Virus record (IMG/VR): IMGVR_UViG_3300014202_000415
Length of the DNA stretch: 38,031 nt
Reading direction: 5' to 3' (one strand)
Origin: a virus
Part shown: positions 3,302 to 38,031 of the stretch, piece after piece
Layout of the letters: every line of letters begins with the position of its first letter
How positions within the stretch are numbered: the stretch's first letter is position 1
Position numbers and translations under genes: made by a program
Notes under the pieces: model-generated
Seen by the model: only the letters and a program-made list of their open reading frames with translations
Database searches by the model: none
What the model was told of the DNA's origin: nothing

Positions 3302-6300
3302 ATGGCTAAACAAGTGGTATCGCAAACAAAGTTTTTGGGCATTGCAGACTACGAGAAAGAGGGCGTAGAGTTTACCTATGCGTTTGGCCGTAGTGTAGAC
3401 TACCGCACTAACCCCCGCCGTTTAACGTTATTACCCCGCACAGCAAAAGAGAGTGGCAGCGTGGTTACTGGCCTCATTAAGTGGTTTGAGGAGCATAACG
3501 GCGTAGTGTACGGGTATGACGCAAGCGGCCACCTATACAGCCGCACCAGCACGCCTACGTGGACTGACTTACGCACAGTGGCTAACAGCAGTGGTAACGG
3601 GCTTGGGTATTTTGGTGAGGACGATTACCTCTATTACCCCACTGACAAGGTTATAGGGCGTTATGGCCCGCTTGGTGGCACCCCCTCGTTTGCTGACGAC
3701 TTTTTAGGGGCACAGGGCGGCGTACCAACCAATACACACGCATTAGACCTTGAGAGTGGCAGCAGCCAATACGCGAGCCGCGCAGATACGTCCTCATTAT
3801 CTATTACGGGCGACTTGGCATTAGAGATTTACGCCAAGCCCGAGAGCCTGCCTACCGCGGGTAACAGCATGGTGTTAATGAGCAAGTGGGATACCAACAG
3901 CGATGAGCGTAGTTACCGTTTTGAGTTATACGCCGTAAGCGGGTATTTTGGTGACGGCTCGGATAGCTCACTTACCATAAGCAGTAATACCACTGAGGCA
4001 CCCATAGACAGTAGCGCCAGCGGTACCAGCGGCGCGTACAGCCTCACCGCGACCAATGCGAGTTTTGCGACAGGGCAGGAGATTTTGATACACCAAACAC
4101 GGGGCACGGGTGCTGGTACGTGGCAGCGCACCACTATTGCTGGGTATACGGCTGGCACCATTACTACCGAAGACCCTCTAAATTATGACTATGCCACCAG
4201 CGGCGCTAATTGTGCACAGGTAAGAGTTTTGCCGCAATATACAAGCGTCACTATTAACAGCGGTATAACCTATACGGCAAAGGCGTGGGACGGCACCGTT
4301 GGCGGTATATTGGCGTTTTTGGCAAACTCAACAGGTACCGTTACTGGAACAATAAGCGCGGAGGGTAAAGGGTTTAGGGGTGGGGTTGGCTCGACTGGCG
4401 CTGACGGCTCCACGCCAACAACGGGGTATGCTGGTGAGGGCACCACTGGTGCAACAGTACAGCAACAAACCGCAAATGGTAACGGCGGCGGTAGTGGTAA
4501 TAACAACCGCGGCCCTTACGGTGGTACGGCCTCGGGCGCTGGCGGTGGCGGTGGTAACGGGTTAGCAGGTAGTGAGGGCGGGCCAAACGGTACGGTTGGG
4601 GGTGACCCAGGCGGTACAGCAGGTAATACAGGCCTAACCAGCATGGTGTTTGGTGGGGGCGGCGGCGCGGGTGGGTGTGATTGGCCTAGTGGTTCTGGTA
4701 ACACTGGCGGTACAGGCGGTAGAGGTGGGGGCATTGTCTTTTTAACAATTGCTGACCTAACCGTAACTGGTGCAATAAACGTAAATGGGGCAGTAGGGGG
4801 CAACGCTTCGGGCTCTAACACAAATAACGGTGGTGCGGGTGGTGGTGGTGGCTCTGCGCTTTTGAAATCTCAAACGGCTACACTAGGTACTGGTTTGATA
4901 ACGGCGAGCGCTGGAACTGGCGGGAGCGCCACAGGTAGCGGCTCGGTTGGTGCAACTGGTGGGGTTGGCCGTATACACCTTGACTACTATACGAGCTACA
5001 CAGGTACAACAACCCCCACGCTTGACGTGGCACAAGACGACACGCTGGTAACCAACACCACATACCAATTACGGTTAATGCTCTCAAGTGACGGCTCTAA
5101 CAGTGAAACATTGGCAAAAGCCGTAAGCATTACCGCTGGCACATATTACCGCTTCCATGTGTCATGGGACGCGAGCGCCGCAACCGCTACGTTTTTCCTT
5201 AATGGTGTAAGCCAGGGTAGCAAAACAGGTGCGTTTACGGCTATTTATAACAGTACCGCGGCGTTTGCCTTGGGCTGCTCGTTTGGTGCGTCAAGTACGG
5301 CAGAAAACTTTTTTGACGGGCTTTTAGACGATGGGCGCGTATGGAATACCGAGCGTACGGAGGCACAATTTTACCAGTACCTCAACCGTGAGCTTGCGGG
5401 TACCGAAGCGGGGCTAGTGGCATACTACCAACTCGACAACAACGCAGACGACAGTACCAGTAATGCAAACCACCTTACTGCCACGGGCTCACCTGTGTAT
5501 AGCACTACGGTAGCCTTTGCTGGGCCAACCTCACGGCTTGACCTTGACCAAGAGTTAAATACCAGTGGCAATACATACACCACGCCAGTAGCTATAAGTG
5601 AAACGGCAACACACAGGCAAACGTTTGTGCCAACAAAAGACCCGCAAAAGAGCGTAGAGGTGTTGGTGGCTGGTAAGGGTACTGGTGACTGGACGCTGAC
5701 GGTGCACGATGCGCAAAACCGAGTTATGGCAACCAAAACGCTGACCAATGCGCAAATGAGCGCTGGGGATATTGAGTTTACATTTAGTAGTGTTTGGCGC
5801 CCTGTTATAGGACAAACGTACCACTTCCATATTACCAGTACGGTTAATGACGGCACGGTAACTACAACAACCTCGAGTGACTTGGAAACGGTAGACTACC
5901 ACACCTACTACCAGTTTTTAGTAGACGATGTGTACCACCCGACTAAGCAAATAATAAACGTGCTGGCTATTGGTAATGAGCGGTATTTAGCTACGTATGA
6001 CGGCAGCAGCTACGACCCACACAGGCTTACGTTACCCTCGGGGCACCGTATACGGGCGTTGGCACGGTGGAATGAGTACCTGGCTATTGGCACGTGGCAG
6101 GGCACCACGGTAAAGAGTAAAGACAAAGGGCACATATTTTTATGGAATGGCTACAGTAAAACGTACGATTTTGATTTTGAGGTACCCGAGGGGGCCATAA
6201 ACGCCTTGCAGGGTAATGAGGGTGTGCTGCACATGATAGTTGGGCACAAAGGCCAACACCTCAAGTATATTGGCGGCAATAAACCTACCCCCGTACGGCG

Positions 6301-12785: not shown

Positions 12786-12815
12786 TTGACACAACCAAAA
12801 AAACCGTGGTACTTT
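12786..12815 (+). promoter_or_regulatory. Candidate leftmost early promoter, CCCCTTGACA-18-TACTTT
   Basis: TTGACA at 12786-12791. GTGGTACTTT resembles GTGATACTTT of the promoter at 308. Confidence 0.45.
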
Positions 12816-12890
12816 GTTTATTGTATATGGAAAATACACCCCCGTTTAACCTCACATTAGGCTACACTTCGAAAAAACTTGTTTTTACCT

Positions 12891-15493: not shown

Positions 15494-15661
15494 ATGAAAA
15501 AATACCACGCACAACGCATTATGGCAGCCTTAATTAGCATTGGCTTTATGTTCCCATTTTTTTGGTTTTTCCCCCAGGCCGCGGCTATAGTAACTATGTT
15601 TGTTATGTTTTTACTAGGTTACGGGCTTTTGCTGGCCCTTATTTTTACATGGGATTTATGA
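15494..15661 (+). CDS. Small two-TM membrane protein (55 aa)
   Basis: MKKYHAQRIMAALISIGFMFPFFWFFPQAAAIVTMFVMFLLGYGLLLALIFTWDL. ATGA overlap with the next gene. Confidence 0.5.
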   Translation: MKKYHAQRIMAALISIGFMFPFFWFFPQAAAIVTMFVMFLLGYGLLLALIFTWDL

Positions 15662-16098
15662 CTGCCAAACCTCATTGCATAATAGTAGACATAGACGGCA
15701 CACTGGCGCTTATGCAGGGCCGCGGGCCGTTTGAGTATGACAAGGTGGGCACTGACCTACCCAACTGGCCCATTATAGACCTCGTGCGCCGCCTCAAAAT
15801 AAAAGATTACCAAAAAGACATACACGCAATGAAAATAGCCTTGGTGAGCGGTAGAGAGGGCTCGTGCAGGTTGGAAACGGTAAAATGGCTTACCAAACAC
15901 TATGTGCCGTATGACTACCTGTTTATGCGTGAGGTGGGCGACAGGCGCAAAGATACTGAGGTAAAGGCAGAGCTTTACCACAGGTTTATTGAGCCGCAAT
16001 ATGACGTGCACTATATACTCGATGACCGCGACCAGGTGGTAAAAATGTGGCGTAGTTTAGGGCTCACCTGTTTGCAGGTGGCAGAGGGCAATTTTTAG
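15658..16098 (+). CDS. HAD-superfamily phosphatase, polynucleotide-kinase 3'-phosphatase-domain type
   Basis: 146 aa from ATG 15658. Contains IIVDIDGTLA (the DxDGT nucleophile motif), VSGR, and ILDDRDQVVKMWR...GLTCLQVAEGNF. Confidence 0.75.
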   Translation: MTAKPHCIIVDIDGTLALMQGRGPFEYDKVGTDLPNWPIIDLVRRLKIKDYQKDIHAMKIALVSGREGSCRLETVKWLTKHYVPYDYLFMREVGDRRKDTEVKAELYHRFIEPQYDVHYILDDRDQVVKMWRSLGLTCLQVAEGNF

Positions 16099-16099
16099 T

Positions 16100-16564
16100 A
16101 TGACCGACCTGCTCACCATGTTATTTGTTTTTTGGCTTGGGGTAACTAACCCCCATGAGCCACCCGCACAACAACCCAGCATTATTAGTGTTATGAACCG
16201 CGCGCGCAAAGTAAACGGGTTACGCCCGTTAAAAGAAAACGCCCAGCTTAACTTAAGTGCGGGGTACAAAGCCTGCGACATGAGCACGGAAAATTACTTT
16301 AGCCATACGCTGCCTGACGGTACCGCATGGTATTTTTATGTTGCTGCCGCGGGGTATGAGTATGACGCTGTAGGTGAGAACATGGCACGCGACATACCCG
16401 ACCATACCGAGGTGGTGGCACGCCTCTTATTAAGCCCAGGGCATAGGGCCAATATACTTAACCCTCGGTATACAGAGGTTGGGGTAGCAGAGTGTGGCAA
16501 GTATATGGTAACGCACTTTGGCCGCCCGCTAGTAGTCTTTTTTGATGACTTGACAAATAACTAA
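16100..16564 (+). CDS. Secreted or membrane-anchored CAP/SCP (YkwD-like) domain protein
   Basis: N-terminal hydrophobic signal-like segment LLTMLFVFWLGV. CAP pattern NRAR...GLRPL...L..A....C.DM....YFSH....G......GEN.A.......LL.SPGHRANIL...YTEVGVA. Confidence 0.6.
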   Translation: MTDLLTMLFVFWLGVTNPHEPPAQQPSIISVMNRARKVNGLRPLKENAQLNLSAGYKACDMSTENYFSHTLPDGTAWYFYVAAAGYEYDAVGENMARDIPDHTEVVARLLLSPGHRANILNPRYTEVGVAECGKYMVTHFGRPLVVFFDDLTNN

Positions 16565-18428: not shown

Positions 18429-19077
18429 ATTACGCGCGTCATACACGCTACTTGATATGTGGGCCAAAGGCGACTGGCAGGGGGCAATTAACTACTACTT
18501 TAAAATTAAGGCGTTTGTTACCCCAGCCATGGTAGACGGGCGCAATTGGCATACAAAGTGGGAGCATGAGGTTGAGCACACAAAAGCATTGCCCGCTATA
18601 TTTACACCGAAAAAAACATTTAACAACCCACTTACCGAGGTAAAAATAGAGGTAGACCTTGCCCCCTGGTTGCAGGTGGTTGGCAAGTTAGACGTGCTAG
18701 ATGCACCCACGGTAGTTGAGTTTAAAACGGGTAAGCAAGACAGCGAGCACTATACCAGCACCTACCAGCTACCGTTTTATGCCATGATATGCGCATACAA
18801 AGGGGTATACGTTGACCGCGGCGAGATTTACCACTATGACCAATACACCAAAAAAGTAGACATGAGCATAGTGTGGATTACTGACGAGCAACTGGCTAAT
18901 GTTAAAAATTGGCTGGAAACCTTGGGCAGCGAGATACATAATTATTTTGTGACCAACAAGCTGTATGAGAGATACGGTACCTATGTACGGGAAAAAGACG
19001 GCGTGGTAAGATTACAAAAGGTGGCTGGGCTTGATGTTAATACGGAGGGCGCAGCCATTATTGGAGGTGTAGCATGA
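18418..19077 (+). CDS. PD-(D/E)xK (RecB/Cas4-like) exonuclease, partner of RecT
   Basis: GKLDVLD...VVEFKTGK and YQLPFYAMI give a D-x(n)-ExK plus QxxxY pattern. Synteny with recT. Confidence 0.55.
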   Translation: MQPKLRASYTLLDMWAKGDWQGAINYYFKIKAFVTPAMVDGRNWHTKWEHEVEHTKALPAIFTPKKTFNNPLTEVKIEVDLAPWLQVVGKLDVLDAPTVVEFKTGKQDSEHYTSTYQLPFYAMICAYKGVYVDRGEIYHYDQYTKKVDMSIVWITDEQLANVKNWLETLGSEIHNYFVTNKLYERYGTYVREKDGVVRLQKVAGLDVNTEGAAIIGGVA

Positions 19078-19535
19078 TTGGCGTAGCCCTCATAGCTGCC
19101 GTAGGTATAGCTATAGGTGTAGCCGTTCCACTTATTCCCCCTGTTACACCAGCCCGTGTAGTGCCCAAGACGACCCCCCAAGTAGCCCAGGTGGTTACGA
19201 CACCAGCACCAACCCCACTACCTACCCCAAAGTACAGTAACGGCGTGCTTGCCTCATGGTATGGGGTACAAGAGTATTGCGCCAAATATAACCCAAGCTG
19301 CATTATGGCTAACCGTAAAAAATTGGTTGATGAGGATTTTACCGCGGCGTGTGCTAAAAAGTGGCCGCTCGGTACCAAGCTACACCTACGGCATAACGGT
19401 AAAGACGTAATAGTAGAGTGCACTGACCGAGGCAGTTTTGAGGAGAAGTACGGCAGGCAGTTAGACTTGAGCAAGGCGGCGTTTACCTCCCTGGCGCCAT
19501 TAAGCAGGGGGGTTATTGAGGTGGAGGTACAGTAA
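19074..19535 (+). CDS. Membrane-anchored RlpA-like double-psi beta-barrel (DPBB) protein
   Basis: N-terminal TM segment plus a Pro/Thr linker. LASWYG...CIMANRK...AAC..WPLGTKLHLRHNGKDVIVECTDRGSF...QLDLSKAAF matches the RlpA/DPBB pattern. Confidence 0.6.
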   Translation: MIGVALIAAVGIAIGVAVPLIPPVTPARVVPKTTPQVAQVVTTPAPTPLPTPKYSNGVLASWYGVQEYCAKYNPSCIMANRKKLVDEDFTAACAKKWPLGTKLHLRHNGKDVIVECTDRGSFEEKYGRQLDLSKAAFTSLAPLSRGVIEVEVQ

Positions 19536-19823: not shown

Positions 19824-20213
19824 ATGGCTAAGTTTATAATTGAGTTTACTGACGCTGAGGTAGATAACGTTGTGCAGACATTCCAACGCCTCGCAGGCGC
19901 TCAAACCCTCGAGCAAATAAAAGCTACGGTGGCAACAGAGTTTGGCCAGCGCATACAAACAGTTAAAGAGGGTATAGACGCGCTCGAGCATAAAGACAAA
20001 CCCAAAAAACATAAAAGTAAAACTGGTGGCCGCTGGGCCCGTAATTATGACGAGTGTATAAAATGCCACCAACAAGACCAGCCGCACGCAAGCAAAGGGC
20101 TGTGTAAGCGGTGTTACATGGCACGGTGGAGCCGTGAGAAAAAAGCCAAGGTTATTATACCCCTAGATGTGCGCAGTGAGGGGGTAGATACGAGGCCAAA
20201 AAATAGACTATGA
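19824..20213 (+). CDS. Hypothetical protein with a CxxC...CxxC zinc motif
   Basis: 129 aa from ATG 19824 with an AAAGGAG SD. Contains ECIKCHQQDQPHASKGLCKRCY. Confidence 0.6.
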   Translation: MAKFIIEFTDAEVDNVVQTFQRLAGAQTLEQIKATVATEFGQRIQTVKEGIDALEHKDKPKKHKSKTGGRWARNYDECIKCHQQDQPHASKGLCKRCYMARWSREKKAKVIIPLDVRSEGVDTRPKNRL

Positions 20214-20413
20214 AAAGCGGCATTTACAGACCACAACCAGGCGAGTATATAGCGTACGGTAACCCATGGGCAGACCCAAAACACCGCAAAGGGTATTACG
20301 CCGTCATAGCGTTTGCCTGGCATAATGCTAAGCCTATATGGGCGAGTGTGTATATACCAACAAGGGGCGAGGCGGCTTTAACCAATAATTTTACATTATT
20401 TAAAAAACTATGA
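20210..20413 (+). CDS. Hypothetical protein
   Basis: 67-aa ORF with ATGA overlaps on both sides. Confidence 0.55.
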   Translation: MKSGIYRPQPGEYIAYGNPWADPKHRKGYYAVIAFAWHNAKPIWASVYIPTRGEAALTNNFTLFKKL

Positions 20414-20853
20414 GGCGCAGCAACAAGCTATACGACCTGGTGCAGCAGTTACTTTATAACGACCCAACCCTGCGGGGTAGCGACAAACGCCTCATGTGGC
20501 AGGTGTGGAGCCGTTTAGGGTATGTGTTATTTGACGGCCTGGCGTATACGCATTTTATAGATAAAAACTGCCCGACCCCTGAGAGCGTGACCCGTTGCCG
20601 CCGCAAAATACAAGAGCTGCACCCCGAGCTACAGGCAGCCAACAGTACCCGCCGAGCCCGTGCAGACAAAGCAGAGCAAAAAGGCACCCACATATACCGT
20701 GAGCCAGCTAAAAAACTCGCTGACCCATGTATGCGGTGTGGGGTGGGCCGCATGATTGTTAAAGACTTATACGACTACTCAAGTGGCACGGCGGTTAAAA
20801 CAGGCTCATACACTGAGTGTAACCACTGCTACAAACGCGGGCCTGTGATATAA
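20410..20853 (+). CDS. Hypothetical protein with a C-terminal zinc ribbon
   Basis: 147-aa ORF with CMRCG...CNHC. Its stop codon lies inside the next TATAAT box. Confidence 0.6.
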   Translation: MRRSNKLYDLVQQLLYNDPTLRGSDKRLMWQVWSRLGYVLFDGLAYTHFIDKNCPTPESVTRCRRKIQELHPELQAANSTRRARADKAEQKGTHIYREPAKKLADPCMRCGVGRMIVKDLYDYSSGTAVKTGSYTECNHCYKRGPVI

Positions 20854-20854
20854 T
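20845..20854 (+). promoter_or_regulatory. GTGATATAAT promoter, 6 nt from ATG 20861 (leaderless)
   Basis: TGTGATATAAT-acgact-ATGGCA. Confidence 0.6.
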
Positions 20855-20860
20855 ACGACT

Positions 20861-21226
20861 ATGGCAAAAAGCTACCGTAACCGCAAAAAATTATCCACCG
20901 TAGTACCAGGTACTATTTTTACCCCTGACGTAAACGCTCTGACCGTAAGTACCCAAATTAACGGCGCAAAGCTCACGGTGCCAATGAAAATGATAGAGGA
21001 CGACCCTGATATGTTTGAGGAGGTACCTGAGTATTGGAAACCGTTAGACGGGCAAAAATACTATTTTATTGACAGCAATATGGTGGTTGCTTATACAGAC
21101 TACAAACCTGACGAGGACGGCACCCACAAACTACGCTGGGAGGCGCACAACTGTTTTGAAACGTTAGAGCTGGCGCAAGCAGCTTTAACCCGCGTACTCA
21201 AGGTGCTCGCTAAAAATGCAATCTAA
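20861..21226 (+). CDS. Hypothetical protein
   Basis: 121-aa ORF. Confidence 0.6.
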   Translation: MAKSYRNRKKLSTVVPGTIFTPDVNALTVSTQINGAKLTVPMKMIEDDPDMFEEVPEYWKPLDGQKYYFIDSNMVVAYTDYKPDEDGTHKLRWEAHNCFETLELAQAALTRVLKVLAKNAI

Positions 21227-21392
21227 GTTTTTAGATGTACGAGATAGAGCCTGCCCAAACTGTAACGGCCCCATGGGCATAAAGGGCTCAACACCCACAA
21301 CAACTGACTGGCAATGCCTACAGTGTCACGTATGGGGCAGGTGGGATAAAATAAAAGGTAAATGGCTACTGCTACGCCGCAAGTTAAAATAA
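21216..21392 (+). CDS. Zinc-ribbon microprotein (58 aa; below the ORF-track cutoff)
   Basis: MQSKFLDVRDRACPNCNGPMG...WQCLQCHVWGRW...; open frame to TAA 21390-21392. Confidence 0.5.
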   Translation: MQSKFLDVRDRACPNCNGPMGIKGSTPTTTDWQCLQCHVWGRWDKIKGKWLLLRRKLK

Positions 21393-21396
21393 CCCC

Positions 21397-21425
21397 TTGA
21401 CAGGATAATACCTCCGTGATATGTT
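21397..21425 (+). promoter_or_regulatory. Promoter of the chaperonin operon, CCCCTTGACA-17-TATGTT with TG extension
   Basis: TTGACAGGATAATACCTCCGTGATATGTT, 9 nt upstream of ATG 21435. Confidence 0.6.
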
Positions 21426-21434
21426 TATTGTGTT

Positions 21435-21725
21435 ATGCGATTGTTACCTGGAAAATACATCGTTATTTGCAAGGACGCTGGCCCCGAGAAGCTAAAGAGC
21501 GGCTTAGAAATGGTGCGCCAAGACAAAAACCAACCCGAGGTAGGCATCGTGTTTGACCTATATAAAGGTAACCCCCCTAAGACAGACGACAAAAACAAAC
21601 TACCATTCCCCCTAAAAAAAGACGACAAAATAGTATACCGAAAGTATAGTGATAATAAGGTGTATATTGGCGGTGTAGCGTACAATTTTATACGGTTTGA
21701 GGATATTATAGGTAAAATTATTTAA
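21435..21725 (+). CDS. groES: GroES-like co-chaperonin (Cpn10)
   Basis: 96 aa, directly upstream of GroEL. Pattern: N-terminal LLPGKYIV strand, a KSGL mobile-loop-like segment, KKDDKIVYRKY, and C-terminal IRFEDIIGKI. Confidence 0.6.
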   Translation: MRLLPGKYIVICKDAGPEKLKSGLEMVRQDKNQPEVGIVFDLYKGNPPKTDDKNKLPFPLKKDDKIVYRKYSDNKVYIGGVAYNFIRFEDIIGKII

Positions 21726-21738
21726 AGGAGGGTTGACC

Positions 21739-23334
21739 ATGAAAAAACTAACATTTAAAAAAGATGCCCGTAAGTCATTAGTTGCAGGGGTGCAAATGAT
21801 GTATGACGCGGTATGCACCACGCTTGGCCCCAAAGGGCGCAACGTGGCTATTGCCCGCCAGTGGGGCTTGCCTATTATTGTGCATGACGGCGTGACCGTG
21901 GCACGAGAGGTTGAGGCAAAAGACGAGTTTACTAACATGGGTATTAACCTCGTGCGCGAGGCGGCACAAAAAACCAATGACGAGGCGGGTGACGGTACAA
22001 CTACCAGCACTTTGCTTGCGTATAACATTGTAAGCCGCGGTATGGCGCTTTTGGAAAAGGGCACCAACCCCATGAGTTTACGCAATGAGATTAACGCTGC
22101 GCTCGACATACTGCGCGCTGAGCTTGCCAAGCTGGCTGTTAAAACTAACAAAAAAGACGATTTGCAGCGGGTGGCATTTATTAGCTCAAGTGATAAAGAG
22201 ATAGGCGACCTGGTAGGCCAGGCGGTGCATGAGGTGGGTTCTGACGGTGTGGTAGCGGTGGAGGAGAACTACGGGCCCGAAACGGAAACTGAGCACACTG
22301 ACGGTTTGCTCATAGATAAAGGCTGGGTTATACCCCACTTTGTGACCAACGTACAGCGTATGGAGGCAGTTATAGAAAACTGCTGGGTTGTGGTTACCGA
22401 CAAAAAGATAACCGCCCAGGTAGAGATTGCCCCACTATTTGAGGTACTGCTTGCTCAAAATAAAAACATACTGCTTATTGGTGACGTAAGCGGCGATGCG
22501 TTGCGCATGGTGGCCCTCAATAAACAGCGCGGCAACGTAAATGCTATTGTGGTTGAAACACCAGGGCACGGCGACAAGCGCCGCGAGTACCTACAGGATA
22601 TTTGCGTAGCCACGGGCGCACAAATTATTAGCGATGAGCTGGGGTTAAAGCTCGAGGATTTGGCCCAGCAGTTTGACCTCAAGGTAGTAGGCAAAGCCAA
22701 ACAGGTAGTGGCAGACAAAAAGAGCACGGTTATTGTAGGCGGTGGTGGTGACAAAAAGGCTATTGCCGAGCACATATCCAACCTCAAAAAACTGCGTGAT
22801 GCAGAGAAAAACCTATACGAGCGCGAGATTTTAGACGAGCGTATAGCTAAACTGAGCGCAGGCGTTACCGTCATTAAGGTAGGGGCTAAAACAGAGCTTG
22901 AGATGCGTGAGCGGTTAGAGCGTGTTAAAGACGCGGTGGGTGCCGCTAAGGCAGCCCTGCAAGAGGGTATAGTGCCAGGGGGCGGCGTAGCCTTTATACG
23001 GCTTGCCCAGGCGCTTGAGGCTCAAAAAGACCTTACCCAAGGTTCACAGCTTATGGTTGATGTGCTCTATGAGCCCGTACGCAAGCTGCTAGACAATGCA
23101 GGCGAGAGCCCAGCAAAAATGGAGGCATTGCTCGAGAAAATACTGGCCGCTGGCGGCAATAAGGGGTACGAGGTTAATAGCGGTAAGCTCGTGGATATGG
23201 TAGAGCAGGGGATTATTGACCCCACCAAGGTACTGCGGTTATCCTTGGAAAACGCTGTATCGGTAGCCACCAGCATACTTACAACCGATGTACTCATTGT
23301 TGACGAGCTGGTAGAGCCTAAAAAAGGTGATTAA
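21739..23334 (+). CDS. groEL: GroEL-like chaperonin (Cpn60) lacking the C-terminal GGM tail
   Basis: 531 aa from ATG 21739 with an AAAGGAGGG SD. Collinear with bacterial GroEL: TLGPKGRNV, DGVTVAREVE, AGDGTTTSTLLA, GVVAVEE, ETPGHGDKRRE, GGGVAFIR, GIIDPTKV. Confidence 0.9.
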   Translation: MKKLTFKKDARKSLVAGVQMMYDAVCTTLGPKGRNVAIARQWGLPIIVHDGVTVAREVEAKDEFTNMGINLVREAAQKTNDEAGDGTTTSTLLAYNIVSRGMALLEKGTNPMSLRNEINAALDILRAELAKLAVKTNKKDDLQRVAFISSSDKEIGDLVGQAVHEVGSDGVVAVEENYGPETETEHTDGLLIDKGWVIPHFVTNVQRMEAVIENCWVVVTDKKITAQVEIAPLFEVLLAQNKNILLIGDVSGDALRMVALNKQRGNVNAIVVETPGHGDKRREYLQDICVATGAQIISDELGLKLEDLAQQFDLKVVGKAKQVVADKKSTVIVGGGGDKKAIAEHISNLKKLRDAEKNLYEREILDERIAKLSAGVTVIKVGAKTELEMRERLERVKDAVGAAKAALQEGIVPGGGVAFIRLAQALEAQKDLTQGSQLMVDVLYEPVRKLLDNAGESPAKMEALLEKILAAGGNKGYEVNSGKLVDMVEQGIIDPTKVLRLSLENAVSVATSILTTDVLIVDELVEPKKGD

Positions 23335-23629
23335 GCGCTTTCAACTGGTAGAGGTAGCACAAATAACCGCCGAGGACGGCACCTACTTTTATACGCTTGA
23401 CGGCACGTTTATAGGAGGGTGGGAAAATGGGAAAATACTCACAGCCAAAGATGACCCTAACGCACAAGCGGCGGGTGATAAGGACGCTAGAGATAATAGT
23501 GGAAGCCCTGGGGCCGTTGTTAAACCGTTACCCCCACGTGAGCACAGGCGGCAGCAGCAAATTGAAGCCAGCAAAGAAATTAGCACGCTCGAGAGTAGGC
23601 TTGACAAAGCAAAGGGAGATAAACCATGA
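23327..23629 (+). CDS. Hypothetical protein
   Basis: 100-aa ORF that overlaps the groEL stop by 8 nt. Confidence 0.55.
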   Translation: MIKRFQLVEVAQITAEDGTYFYTLDGTFIGGWENGKILTAKDDPNAQAAGDKDARDNSGSPGAVVKPLPPREHRRQQQIEASKEISTLESRLDKAKGDKP

Positions 23630-23913
23630 CAAAATGCCCACGGTGCCAAAAAGAGCCAGCGACCATACACCCGTTTTACGGCGTACTGCCAGGGGTAAAG
23701 TGCCAGGCAAAAGACGCTAAGGGGGTGCGAGTAATGCGCGGGCCCGAGTTTTACGCCCATACTAAGGCGTACAGAATACAGAGCCAGCGCGACAGGTTCG
23801 CTAAAGATTTATTGCAGCCGTATGAGGGCAAAGGGCCAAGCAGAGATTTTGTTAAGGCGTACCCTGACAAAGCAACCGACTACTTTAAAAAAGACGAGCT
23901 AACCAAATTATGA
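23626..23913 (+). CDS. Hypothetical protein
   Basis: 95-aa ORF with an ATGA overlap. Confidence 0.55.
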   Translation: MTKCPRCQKEPATIHPFYGVLPGVKCQAKDAKGVRVMRGPEFYAHTKAYRIQSQRDRFAKDLLQPYEGKGPSRDFVKAYPDKATDYFKKDELTKL

Positions 23914-24020
23914 AAAAGGCAAACTACCGAGAGGTTAAAAACTTACTGCGCCCACTTACGCTGCATAGGTTAAAAGATTTATGGCGGCGGGCAGGCATTA
24001 AGCGGGAGGGTAAACTATGA
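23910..24020 (+). CDS. Basic micropeptide (36 aa)
   Basis: ATGA overlaps at both ends. Product MKKANYREVKNLLRPLTLHRLKDLWRRAGIKREGKL. Confidence 0.4.
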   Translation: MKKANYREVKNLLRPLTLHRLKDLWRRAGIKREGKL

Positions 24021-24406
24021 TTAAGCTACTCAAACCGTCACTAAAACTGGCAAAATTAGCTGGTATACCCAAGACGGCAATACTGTGCCCTATGCACCCA
24101 CGCATTACGGTAGAGGCAGAGTTAAAAACAATAGTAATGGTGCCATACAAAAATACCATGTTTGATAAAAAGCTCGGTATAGACCGTGTAGTAGGTATGG
24201 GCGTAAGCTGCCCACGCTGTAGTTTTACTCAGCCACTCGACACGAAAAAAACCGCACAAAAGCTGCAACTCGTAGACGAGAGCAAGCCTGCGGGAAATCC
24301 ACGGGTAAAAGGTGCAAGCCAAATGACCACTCCCCCACCGCTTATTTCCACGGTAGGGGAGAGTGGGGGAGAGGCGAAAAATGCGGGAAATGAGGCTAAA
24401 ATATGA
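24017..24406 (+). CDS. Hypothetical protein
   Basis: 129-aa ORF. Confidence 0.55.
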   Translation: MIKLLKPSLKLAKLAGIPKTAILCPMHPRITVEAELKTIVMVPYKNTMFDKKLGIDRVVGMGVSCPRCSFTQPLDTKKTAQKLQLVDESKPAGNPRVKGASQMTTPPPLISTVGESGGEAKNAGNEAKI

Positions 24407-24627
24407 GCGAGGCACAAACAATGTTAGAGCAAGCCCTAAAGGCATTTGACGTGCACCAGGGGGCACTTATGGCTATACTATTAGCCAAAGGCGTGTTTAC
24501 TATGGAGGAGTATAACGAGGCAGTAAAAGCGGCTACGCCCATAATAGAGGCGGCAGGTGAAAAACAAAGCGCAGCGTTTAAAGAAGCGTTAGAACGTGAC
24601 AAAGCAGCACGGGGGCAAAAACCATGA
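24403..24627 (+). CDS. Hypothetical protein
   Basis: 74-aa ORF with an ATGA overlap. Confidence 0.55.
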   Translation: MSEAQTMLEQALKAFDVHQGALMAILLAKGVFTMEEYNEAVKAATPIIEAAGEKQSAAFKEALERDKAARGQKP

Positions 24628-26042
24628 CTGACCAAACAAAATACCGTAAACCATTAACCACGTTGCATGAGTGGGAGCGTAACCCGCGCAGTATAACCAA
24701 GCGGGGTTTTGAGCGCCTTATTTACCAGGTTATTAAGCTCGAGCAGTACAAGCCCATTATTGTTAAAACTGACGGTACCGTATTAGGTGGCAATATGCGC
24801 CACAAGGTATACACCCACATTAGCACCATGCCCCTTACTAAGCTGCGTACCCTTATGCAAAAAATACGCAATGCCGAGGTAAGCCTGGCGCAAGCGCAGG
24901 CACTCAAACAAGAAGTGGATAACCCATGGGTAAGCGAGGTGCACCCCAAAAACGACAGCGAGGCGTTAGAGTATGCGCTAAGTGATAATGACGAGGCAGG
25001 GCATACAGACGAGGATTTATTGGCTAATATGCTACCCGACTTTAAACTAGACGACCCAAGTATGTTTGCCGTGCACTTTACCGACCCACTGGCGTTAAAC
25101 GACCTTATACCTAAAGAGGGTGACGGCTCGGGTACTGGCGCTGGGGCATTGGTTGACAAGTTTTTAGTACCCCCGTTTAGCATACTCGACACACGCCAGG
25201 GCTATTGGGCTGACCGTAAAGACGAGTGGCGCAAGCGTGTTGGTGACAAGGGTGAGAGCCGTGACGAGGTATTAAGCGGGCTTGATAGCCTAAATAAGGG
25301 CAATTTTGACAAGGATATACTCACGGTGAGCATTTTAGACCCTGTACTGGCTGAGCTGGCCGTGCGGTGGTTTTGCCCGCCTGGGGGCACCACCTTTGAC
25401 CCGTTTGCTGGCGATACTATATTTGGCTTTGTAAGCGGCACCCTGGGCAACCCATTTACGGGTATAGAGCTGCGCGAGGCACAGGCAAAGCTCAACCAGG
25501 AGCGCGTGGAGGGGCTGCCAGCCACGTATATTTGCGATGACGGCGTAAACGTATCAAAACACCTCAAACCAGATAGCCAGGATTTGCTATTTAGCTGCCC
25601 ACCCTATTTTGACCTCGAGGTATACAGTGACCTGCCAAATGACGCCAGTAACCAAAAAGACTACCAAAGCTACCTAGAGGTATTAGGTAAGGCGTTTGCC
25701 GCCTCATACGACTGCCTCAAGCCTGACCGTTTCGCGGTCATTGTTATTGGTGACATACGCGACAAAAAAACGGGTGCATACCGTGGTATACCCAGCGACA
25801 TAGTGCGCATTATGACCACCACAGGGTTTGTGCTCTATAACGATGCGGTACTGCTTAATGAAACGGGCACGGGGGCTATACGCGCCTCACGGTACTTTAA
25901 CGGCAGCCGTAAGCTCGTTAAGCTGCACCAAAACGTGCTGGTATTTTACAAAGGTGACATAAAAAAGATACCTGAAAACTACCCAAAGCTAGAGCTACCC
26001 CAAGAGGGTGAGCAGACCGAGGAGGTGGCCCATGAAGTTTAA
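24624..26042 (+). CDS. ParB-like N-terminal domain fused to a DNA methyltransferase
   Basis: N-terminus LHEWERNPR...VLGGNMRH (ParB/Srx-like). C-terminus [15 protein letters not shown] (SAM motif I-like) followed by [13 protein letters not shown] ((S/D/N)PPY catalytic-type motif). Confidence 0.75.
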
Positions 26043-32048: not shown

Positions 32049-32076
32049 TTGACAAAACGACTAACTTTGATATAAT
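32049..32076 (+). promoter_or_regulatory. Capsid-operon promoter CCCCTTGACA-16-TATAAT with TG extension
   Basis: TTGACAAAACGACTAACTTTGATATAAT. Confidence 0.7.
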
Positions 32077-37842: not shown

Positions 37843-38031
37843 ATGCAAGCAGCACAACAGCTTTTAGTATTGCAGGCAGACATACGCCAGTTAGAGCGTA
37901 AAAAGGGTAATTTACTCGCATTTTTAGACCGCACAGGCCAGCAATTACTTGAGGCACGCAGTGAAGTTGCTGAGTACAAACGCCAAAAACAGCAACTCTA
38001 TACCCGCATACGCATTTTACTAAGCACCATA
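37843..38031 (+). CDS. 5' part of the junction-spanning coiled-coil protein gene (continues at base 1; bases 37941-38031 duplicate 1-91)
   Basis: ATG at 37843, three bases after the preceding stop. The frame is open to the window end and continues in phase into 1..154. Confidence 0.55.
   Translation, partial: MQAAQQLLVLQADIRQLERKKGNLLAFLDRTGQQLLEARSEVAEYKRQKQQLYTRIRILLSTI
37941..38031. repeat. Terminal 91-bp direct overlap, copy 2
   Basis: Exact duplicate of bases 1-91. Confidence 0.9.

Follow-up and report, generated by a model that had tools for sequence, protein, structure and literature searches.

Genes for GroEL and GroES are abundant in viral sequence, and Marine et al. 2017 (PMC5649160) described 63 contigs on which they occur in the order GroES then GroEL. 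When that survey was made, the two genes were known together from only two phages in GenBank, and complete chaperonin operons were concluded to be a likely feature of larger genomes (>70 kb) (PMC5649160). The biochemically characterized phage chaperonins of the Cpn60 family, namely EL gp146, OBP gp246, and AR9 gp228, belong to giant phages and act independently of a lid (PMC9598537). The literature that we searched contained no biochemically characterized phage-encoded two-component chaperonin. Here, we analyze a GroES–GroEL gene pair in IMG/VR virus record IMGVR_UViG_3300014202_000415, a 38,031-nucleotide stretch of DNA referred to below as the window. Far from being a one-off oddity, the pair forms part of the conserved core of a large lineage of uncultured small phages, and the kind of system it represents is already known. 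Judged from its sequence, the pair is likely to function as a two-component group I chaperonin that the phage itself encodes, and to have been inherited vertically as a core module of widespread uncultured podovirus-like phages with genomes of ~37–45 kb.

Identity of the GroES and GroEL genes

The pair comprises two open reading frames (ORFs) and a short spacer:

21435–21725, + strand: co-chaperonin GroES/Cpn10, 96 amino acids (Pfam PF00166, phrog_3188, AlphaFold2 fold, Foldseek)
21726–21738, + strand: GroES–GroEL spacer, 13 nt, with a strong Shine–Dalgarno sequence, AAGGAGGG, at 21725–21732, 7 nt before the GroEL ATG (read from the sequence)
21739–23334, + strand: group I chaperonin GroEL/Cpn60, 531 amino acids (Pfam, NCBIfam subfamilies, phmmer against the PDB, phrog_5725, residue table, clade bootstrap)

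The GroES gene ends with TAA at 21723–21725 and the GroEL gene begins with ATG at 21739; an in-frame TTG at 21733 offers an alternative, unlikely GroEL start. An initial annotation, made from the letters and their translations, had given the same two ORF lengths, the same 13-nt gap, and the same coordinates. Each GroEL peptide that it quoted (TLGPKGRNV, DGVTVAREVE, AGDGTTTSTLLA, GGGVAFIR, IIDPTKV, and the C-terminal VEPKKGD) was located, and its identification of the ORFs as a phage-borne Cpn10 and Cpn60 pair is borne out by concordant profile matches to Pfam and the PDB. The predicted domain assignments of both ORFs lie far beyond chance.

GroEL scored 193.8 bits against Pfam PF00118 (Cpn60_TCP1; cutoff 34.3) and 447 bits against phrog_5725, and it passed the NCBIfam subfamily models NF009487 (535.7 versus 352), NF000592 (535.4 versus 397), NF009488, and NF009489. 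Its score fell below the TIGR02348 equivalog cutoff (522.8 versus 582.1 bits), which fits a divergent, phage-specific GroEL branch. In phmmer searches of the PDB, residues 2–522 aligned in one stretch to residues 2–520 of 9rwr_A (433 bits) and, likewise in one stretch, to residues 3–522 of 1aon_A (376.5 bits), so that collinearity with solved GroELs spans the equatorial, intermediate, and apical domains. An exact look-up of the window GroEL (P0001) returned no record. Loss of key ATP-binding residues, a possibility raised with the initial annotation, was looked for, and the ATP site is intact: by alignment (E. coli numbering), the nucleotide-binding and catalytic residues T30-L-G-P33, D52, D87-G-T-T-T91, I150-S151, D398, G414-G-G416, I493, and D495 are those of E. 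coli GroEL. The hinge glycines G192, G375, and G410 are also kept, and a K/E pair occupies the position of R197–E386. Elsewhere, His stands in place of E. coli K51, N479–A481 are variable, and the C-terminus lacks a Gly-Gly-Met tail. The apical positions Y199, S201, Y203, F204, L234, L237, L259, V263, and V264 read W, I, H, F, A, F, L, A, and L in the window GroEL; hydrophobicity is mostly retained at these sites of substrate and GroES-loop contact, and position 264 differs among relatives (H, D, A, S).

GroES matched the Pfam Cpn10 profile PF00166 at 44.5 bits (cutoff 21.1, E = 1.7e-11), with residues 7–95 aligned to positions 7–93 of 93, and matched phrog_3188, "co-chaperonin GroES," at 25 bits. 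Profile searches had been proposed as a check on the 96-residue ORF; it passed the Pfam Cpn10 cutoff but missed every NCBIfam GroES cutoff. With tblastn, no BLAST-detectable GroES relative was found among 50,697 phage records, and a word-seeded search gave essentially no match because the lid is too divergent, whereas a profile search built from clade lids succeeded.

Conservation of the pair in a phage-only lineage

The pair was examined in seven genomes of the clade to which the window belongs, namely the window and the relatives designated L003, L004, L005/L006, L007/L008, L011, and L012. In 7/7, the Cpn60 gene is immediately preceded by a Cpn10 gene on the same strand. Where the flanks reach far enough, the common order is recombinase, Cpn10–Cpn60, small ORFs, N6/N4 methyltransferase, TerL, portal, and capsid. 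The 120 closest GroEL clusters (formed at 90% identity; 48–76% identical to the window protein) come from contigs of at most 45,088 bp, with 27 at 32–45 kb. A search with a profile of clade lids retrieved 161 proteins, and all 120 that were listed carry the PF00166 annotation. Eighteen longest-contig values are common to the independent GroEL and GroES match lists, suggesting that GroEL and GroES are encoded together on these contigs. GroEL-like genes in general were retrieved from 264 deposited phage records and at least 590 IMG/VR contigs; the IMG/VR scan was run with a GroEL alignment, as the single window GroEL gave patterns that were too specific and returned no match.

The initial annotation had set the pair apart as unusual from the GroES substitutes of some phages and the lone GroEL-like proteins of a few large ones. 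That premise is not supported: both genes occur in a few cultured phages, in viral operons from viromes, and in every examinable relative. Its allied statement, that a 38-kb phage encoding cage and lid is unusual, does not hold as a matter of rarity but does hold for genome size when set against the published >70 kb generalization. The annotation had also allowed that close, characterized relatives might carry the pair routinely; carriage is indeed routine, though among relatives known only from sequence.

Two observations concern gene structure. In L011 (40,884 bp), the GroES–GroEL spacer is 283 nt long and contains a tRNA-Gln(TTG) at 3924–3995, which stops 5 nt short of the GroEL gene. Several top-scoring representatives from the exhaustive GroEL search are double-length proteins, among them P0242 (1078 amino acids), P0244 (1081), P0316 (1058), and P0283 (1166). 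P0242 and P0244 each match the GroEL query in two stretches and may be tandem Cpn60–Cpn60 fusions or fused gene calls.

Phylogenetic analysis places the window GroEL among phage proteins. In a neighbor-joining tree from which three non-GroEL ORFs of the IMG/VR set were left out (with them in, support for monophyly is 7/50), the window GroEL clade is monophyletic with a bootstrap of 60/60. A wider group, also supported at 60/60, takes in four more uncultured phages: MW202497, MW202566, and L056, with genomes or contigs of ~39–43 kb, and L054, represented by a 21.9-kb fragment. His at position 51 follows the same boundary, being present in 40/42 clade members, in 4/4 sister sequences, and in the Cpn60 of the TM7 phage DolZOral124_53_65, and in 0/37 other GroELs. 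From the 150 best representatives at 50% identity, ~139 single-length members could be aligned, 43 of which have H51; a Met/Gly-rich tail occurs in 1/43. Identity to the window GroEL is 39.1% for E. coli GroEL and 39.5% for a chromosomal Patescibacteria GroEL, whereas the two bacterial proteins share 57.3%. This pattern favors a long history in phages over a recent capture.

The chaperonin also tracks the virion genes. In portal searches of deposited phages, only MW202566 (38,956 bp) and the TM7 phage match, and the same holds for full-length matches to the capsid protein. By whole-proteome tblastn, the TM7 phage shares only the adaptor, the 1212-amino-acid tail protein, the portal, the capsid, and Cpn60 with the window, and MW202566 shares those five and three more. 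Identities to MW202566 and the TM7 phage, respectively, are 40% and 29% for GroEL, 39% and 36% for the capsid, and 26% and 31% for the portal. The divergence of the chaperonin (29–40%) parallels that of the portal (26–31%) and capsid (36–39%), as expected if it had been inherited vertically together with the virion module.

In the sister lineage MW202497.1 (L002), a 96-amino-acid ORF at 5353–5643 overlaps the GroEL start; it is not a Cpn10 and has an HExxH-like motif (LHEILH). The MW202497 GroEL gene is flanked by glycosyltransferase genes.

The GroES lid

Two segments of GroES bear on how it would engage a GroEL ring:

21477–21533, + strand: mobile-loop region, about residues 15–33, with GroEL-docking motif G23-L24-E25-M26 (alignment with E. 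coli GroES and 71 clade co-chaperonins)
21570–21599, + strand: lineage-specific insert N46–K55 (NPPKTDDKNK) at the position of the GroES roof hairpin (clade lid alignment, AlphaFold2 model)

The AlphaFold2 model of GroES, built from 66 homologs, is a Cpn10 beta-barrel with a predicted local distance difference test score (pLDDT) of 85.2 and a predicted template modeling (TM) score of 0.76. The mobile loop is its least confident stretch (pLDDT 66), as expected of a flexible loop. When the model was compared with the PDB using Foldseek, ranks 1–34 were all Cpn10-type co-chaperonin chains (TM 0.6–0.69, probability ≥0.99); T4 gp31 (1g31) appeared at rank 36 (TM 0.52, E = 0.34). Across 71 GroES clusters, the clade mobile loop has the consensus K-[ST]-G-hydrophobic-x-hydrophobic, in which x is often acidic. 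The aligned loop of E. coli GroES reads A-G-G-I-V-L; in the window motif G23-L-E-M, the glycine is kept, the first and third positions of the tripeptide are hydrophobic, and the second is acidic.

The roof hairpin of E. coli GroES has 17 residues. At the equivalent position, 56/71 clade lid clusters have only 10–11 residues and are roofless, 12 are intermediate, and 3 (the window, P0170, and P0174) have 19 residues. The three 19-residue inserts show no sequence relationship to one another, an indication that they arose independently. In the window protein, the insert is modeled as a loop and short helical turn rather than a beta-hairpin.

Promoter and expression

A candidate promoter lies immediately ahead of the pair:

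21397–21425, + strand: sigma-70-type promoter, with −35 box TTGACA (21397–21402), a 17-nt spacer with TG at −15/−14, and −10 box TATGTT (21420–21425); consensus match

The motif is exactly as the initial annotation described it, and its claim of a dedicated promoter divides in two. A plausible promoter does lie directly upstream, but it is not dedicated to the pair. It is one of ~7 similar sigma-70-type promoters in the genome, and it would drive more than the two chaperonin genes, since GroEL has no terminator after it and its stop codon lies within the start of the following ORF. The seven promoters are intergenic, on the + strand, with a perfect TTGACA and 16–18-nt spacers, and lie at 308, 12786, 13657, 16550, 17914, 21397, and 32049. 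The site at 32049 precedes the capsid gene and has the best consensus (TTGACA-16-TATAAT).

Only 9 nt separate the −10 box from the GroES ATG, and GroES has no Shine–Dalgarno sequence. This short distance, together with the missing ribosome-binding site, predicts a leaderless or near-leaderless (few nt) mRNA, from which GroES appears to be made. A perfect TTGACA occurs at the equivalent site upstream of GroES in 4/7 clade genomes (the window, L003, L004, and L011). In L003, L004, and L011, the −10 box ends 6–10 nt before the GroES ATG, again with no Shine–Dalgarno sequence, and in L003 the annotated GroES start codon falls within the −10 box. The extended motif CCCCTTGACA is enriched, with 9 matches at ≤1 mismatch versus 1.9 ± 1.1 expected; 0/100 shuffles reach 9. 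The RNA fold at the start of the GroES mRNA did not differ from that of shuffled sequences (z = +0.92).

Two sequence features recur among the promoters. Those at 308, 13657, 16550, and 17914 have a ACCTAACAAT-like spacer in common. The downstream string TGTTTATTGT is common to the promoters at 12786–12840 and 21397–21437; both have an ATG within ~10 nt and no Shine–Dalgarno sequence, which suggests leaderless mRNAs.

Neither a CIRCE element (up to 3 mismatches) nor a sigma-32-type promoter (CTTGAA-N12-16-CCCCATNT) was found in the window. A bacterial heat-shock groESL operon was ruled out on this basis: there is no CIRCE/HrcA operator or sigma-32 promoter, and the promoter present is of the sigma-70 type.

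Proposed mechanism and alternative explanations

We propose that the primary sigma factor of the host would direct RNA polymerase to initiate at TTGACA-17-TATGTT, placing the mRNA 5′ end at or a few nucleotides from the GroES AUG. GroES would be translated leaderless and GroEL from its strong Shine–Dalgarno sequence, 13 nt after the GroES stop, and gene overlap and the lack of a terminator suggest that transcription continues into the downstream small ORFs. GroEL, whose catalytic and phosphate-binding residues are intact, would assemble into heptameric rings that bind and hydrolyze ATP. A GroES heptamer would cap the ring by placing the mobile-loop G-L-E-M in the apical groove, and the resulting chamber would enclose folding phage proteins. 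Folding of phage capsid or tail proteins by the pair is a reasonable proposal. The likeliest client would be the 355-residue HK97-type major capsid protein, given the analogy with T4 gp31/GroEL and gp23 and the co-inheritance of GroEL with capsid, portal, and adaptor. The module is very probably functional.

We advance a more far-reaching account only tentatively. It holds that the pair is an ancient, highly diverged, and vertically inherited part of the core set of a deep small-phage lineage (~37–45 kb), co-inherited with capsid, portal, and adaptor, and that these are among the smallest viral genomes with a full chaperonin. The lid would be ancestrally roofless, with roof inserts regained independently, and expression would be leaderless. 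Given that the lineage would take in at least one phage with an assigned Saccharibacteria (TM7) host and that TerL relatives occur in other Patescibacteria, the chaperonin may be an adaptation to hosts of minimal proteostasis capacity.

Several points weigh against a functional cage and lid as proposed. The clade's chaperonin pair is known from sequence alone, and its client protein is purely inferred. The promoter and the leaderless translation of GroES are predictions from consensus matches; a generic scan of the region for promoter-like sites shows no enrichment (24 versus 20.7 ± 5.2 expected), and 3/7 clade genomes have no promoter at the equivalent position. GroES is very divergent (18% identical to E. 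coli GroES), and its top NCBIfam GroES score is 37.3 against a cutoff of 96. An acidic residue sits in the middle of its docking tripeptide, and the apical groove of GroEL carries the changes Y203H, L234A, and V263A relative to E. coli; in combination, these mean that a canonical lid–cage interaction is not guaranteed. Among the inter-ring contacts K105, A109, E434, R452, E461, and V464, R452 alone is kept (1/6). Because these contacts are not conserved, ring–ring communication may differ from that of E. coli GroEL, and we speculate that the complex could even be single-ring.

Of the alternatives, the one that deserves most attention, although we consider it unlikely, is that the two proteins are not a dedicated pair: the phage GroES might reprogram host GroEL in the manner of T4 gp31, the phage GroEL might work lidless like EL gp146, OBP gp246, and AR9 gp228, or both. 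Each mode is documented in phages (PMC9598537, PMC5649160). The extreme divergence of the lid would suit such a role, as would the lack of a roof hairpin in most clade lids, a trait of gp31 and CocO, and the sister lineage MW202497 has a GroEL with no recognizable Cpn10 upstream, while the ORF upstream of the TM7 phage Cpn60 is not detectably a Cpn10. Strict adjacency and co-conservation of the genes in 7/7 clade genomes, however, speak for a partnership, as does a mobile-loop motif conserved across the clade. The window GroEL is 27% identical to EL gp146 versus 39–42% to lid-dependent group I GroELs, and the lid fold is nearer to cellular Cpn10 (TM 0.6–0.69) than to gp31 (rank 36, TM 0.52).

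The remaining alternatives question whether the genes belong to a phage in any lasting sense. Recent capture of a host groESL operon, in place of a long-standing phage module, is very improbable. The canonical bacterial order with a short spacer would be expected of such an event, and many IMG/VR "viral" contigs do carry bacterial-like groESL genes whose products are 45–75% identical to those of E. coli and have Met/Gly-rich tails. The window GroEL, by contrast, is 39–42% identical to any bacterial-type GroEL tested, whereas GroELs of different bacterial phyla are ~57% identical to each other. It falls within the phage-only clade (60/60), the nearest representatives outside that clade, at 42–47%, are metagenomic proteins on contigs of ≤40 kb, and synteny is kept in 7/7 clade genomes; the genes have the GC content of the rest of the genome and lack a CIRCE element and sigma-32 promoter. 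An assembly chimera, or a non-phage element with bacterial chaperonin genes, is scarcely credible. The sequence is metagenomic, and it has no nucleotide-level likeness in the phage collection, as a search of positions 20000–25000 against 50,697 phage records returned no match. Yet bases 1–91 are identical to 37941–38031, through either circular-assembly overlap or terminal redundancy, which closes a 37.9-kb unit and indicates a complete genome of ~37,940 bp. Every gene is on the + strand, and the packaging, head, adaptor, and lysis set is complete, with TerS, a GpA-type TerL, portal, major head protein, SU10-type adaptor, and Amidase_2 endolysin encoded alongside RecT and a Cas4-like nuclease. 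GC content is even across the chaperonin genes and the rest of the genome, GC skew is likewise uniform, and independent assemblies from at least six other samples show this architecture too. We retain, as the likely one, the reading of a phage-encoded two-component chaperonin.

Genome context and host leads

Further features of the window include the following:

23626–23913, + strand: 95-amino-acid ORF with an N-terminal CxxC and no family match, kept downstream of GroEL in L003, L004, and L007 (42–59% identity)
24624–26042, + strand: ParB-like N-terminal domain fused to an N6/N4 DNA methyltransferase, conserved in L003
26008–26349, + strand: ORF resembling S-adenosylmethionine decarboxylase, overlapping the methyltransferase ORF, conserved in L003
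3302–6940, + strand: virion/tail protein of 1212 amino acids with a Laminin_G_3/ConA-like lectin (LamG/ConA-like) domain; 26–31% identity in the TM7 phage and MW202566

The 95-amino-acid ORF may be a further member of the chaperonin module. The flanks of the pair contain no small heat-shock protein (sHSP) or other chaperone partner, and the window contains no tRNA genes. The early/middle region also encodes, on the + strand, a polynucleotide-kinase-type phosphatase domain (15562–16098; 166.8 bits), a CAP/cysteine-rich secretory family protein (16100–16564), and a DPBB_1 lytic-transglycosylase-like protein (19074–19535). The CAP and DPBB_1 proteins occur in the relatives L003 and L007 as well.

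Three observations point, as a weak lead, to hosts among the Patescibacteria, or Candidate Phyla Radiation (CPR): kinship with the TM7 phage, the TerL relatives, and the LamG domain. The host of DolZOral124_53_65 is recorded as candidate division TM7. In a scan of GTDB species representatives, the only TerL relatives (34–35% identity) were in two Patescibacteria metagenome-assembled genomes and may be prophages; these are L093 (JAHFKN010000001.1, Ca. Gottesmanbacteria, 385-kb contig) and L094 (Ca. Shapirobacteria). Within ±10 kb of TerL, neither locus has a chaperonin or any other window gene. LamG/ConA-like domains are reported to be typical of groundwater CPR phages (PMC11310336), and chaperonins are not mentioned in the CPR-phage literature that was checked. 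A "Patescibacteria" GroES on a 43.7-kb contig was set aside as part of a genuine chromosomal groESL, the GroEL of which is no closer to that of the phage than is E. coli GroEL; a CPR origin of the chaperonin is accordingly not supported.

Comparison with known systems

The lineage is a compact and abundant natural set of ~120 GroEL clusters (90% identity) and ~70 lid clusters in which roofless, intermediate, and roofed lids all occur, and its genomes are small enough for synthesis and manipulation. With the chaperonin behaving as a core gene of the virion module, dependence of the capsid on a co-evolved private cage is directly testable. Should the tentative link to CPR/Patescibacteria hosts prove true, ultra-small bacteria would seem to have a proteostasis bottleneck for which their phages must make up.

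Relative to E. coli GroES/GroEL, the window pair retains full-length collinearity, the nucleotide-site residues, the hinge glycines, the Cpn10 lid fold, and the gene order. It differs in sequence (39% for GroEL, 18% for GroES), in lacking the GGM tail, in K51H, in five of six inter-ring contacts, and in the absence of sigma-32/CIRCE control. Among phage systems, EL gp146, OBP gp246, and AR9 gp228 have no adjacent Cpn10, whereas the window has one, and gp146 is 27% identical to the window GroEL over 442 amino acids; a lone chaperonin of the gp146 type was ruled out by the adjacent Cpn10 and by this identity, which compares with 39–42% over the full length to lid-dependent GroELs. T4 gp31 and RB49 CocO are phage lids without a roof hairpin, as are most clade lids, but the phages that encode them use host GroEL. 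A lid of this type was likewise ruled out, given the rank and TM score of gp31, the insert at the roof position, and the presence of a phage GroEL.

The nearest deposited relatives, though very distant, are MW202566.1 (uncultured Caudoviricetes, 38,956 bp) and TM7 phage DolZOral124_53_65 (MG269973.1, 38,840 bp); they have small circular genomes that share with the window the portal, capsid, adaptor, large tail protein, and a Cpn60 with H51. Both also have a small ORF directly upstream of Cpn60, as in the window. That of MW202566 scores under the Pfam Cpn10 threshold (17.9 bits), and that of the TM7 phage has no Cpn10 match by Pfam or custom hidden Markov model and an hhalign probability of 26%. 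The TM7 phage Cpn60 is shortened to 480 amino acids and has GDSTTL in place of GDGTTT.

Cultured phages provide further examples. Flavobacterium phage vB_FspM_immuto (160 kb), a later example, has an annotated GroES directly upstream of GroEL with a 3-nt spacer, and Cellulophaga phage phi38:1 has GroES, a short ORF, and then GroEL. The immuto genome is ~4 times larger than that of the window. Its GroEL, which lies outside the clade and carries K at position 51, is 41% identical to the window protein and 52% to E. coli GroEL, and its GroES has no BLAST similarity to the window GroES.

The operons of Marine et al. resemble the window in being phage-borne, in placing GroES before a divergent GroEL, and in having a polar or charged residue in the docking tripeptide, which was found in 23% of viral lids in a survey that also encountered roofless lids (PMC5649160). 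In their GroES>GroEL lids, however, the loop glycine is replaced by Asn or Ser, often with an sHSP encoded upstream, whereas the window keeps the glycine and has no sHSP. Their roofless lids come from contigs in GroEL>GroES order, and the roofless lids of this clade from genomes in GroES>GroEL order. Their genomes were inferred to exceed 70 kb, compared with a complete 37.9 kb for the window and no clade contig above ~45 kb among those listed. Membership in their GroES>GroEL clade was considered and rejected: the order matches, but the retained glycine, missing sHSP, and 37.9-kb genome set the window apart from the published description. What is new here is the small-genome lineage, the combination of lid features, the core-gene behavior of GroEL, and the leaderless-type signal, and the small clade genomes correct the published view that complete chaperonins mark phages above 70 kb.

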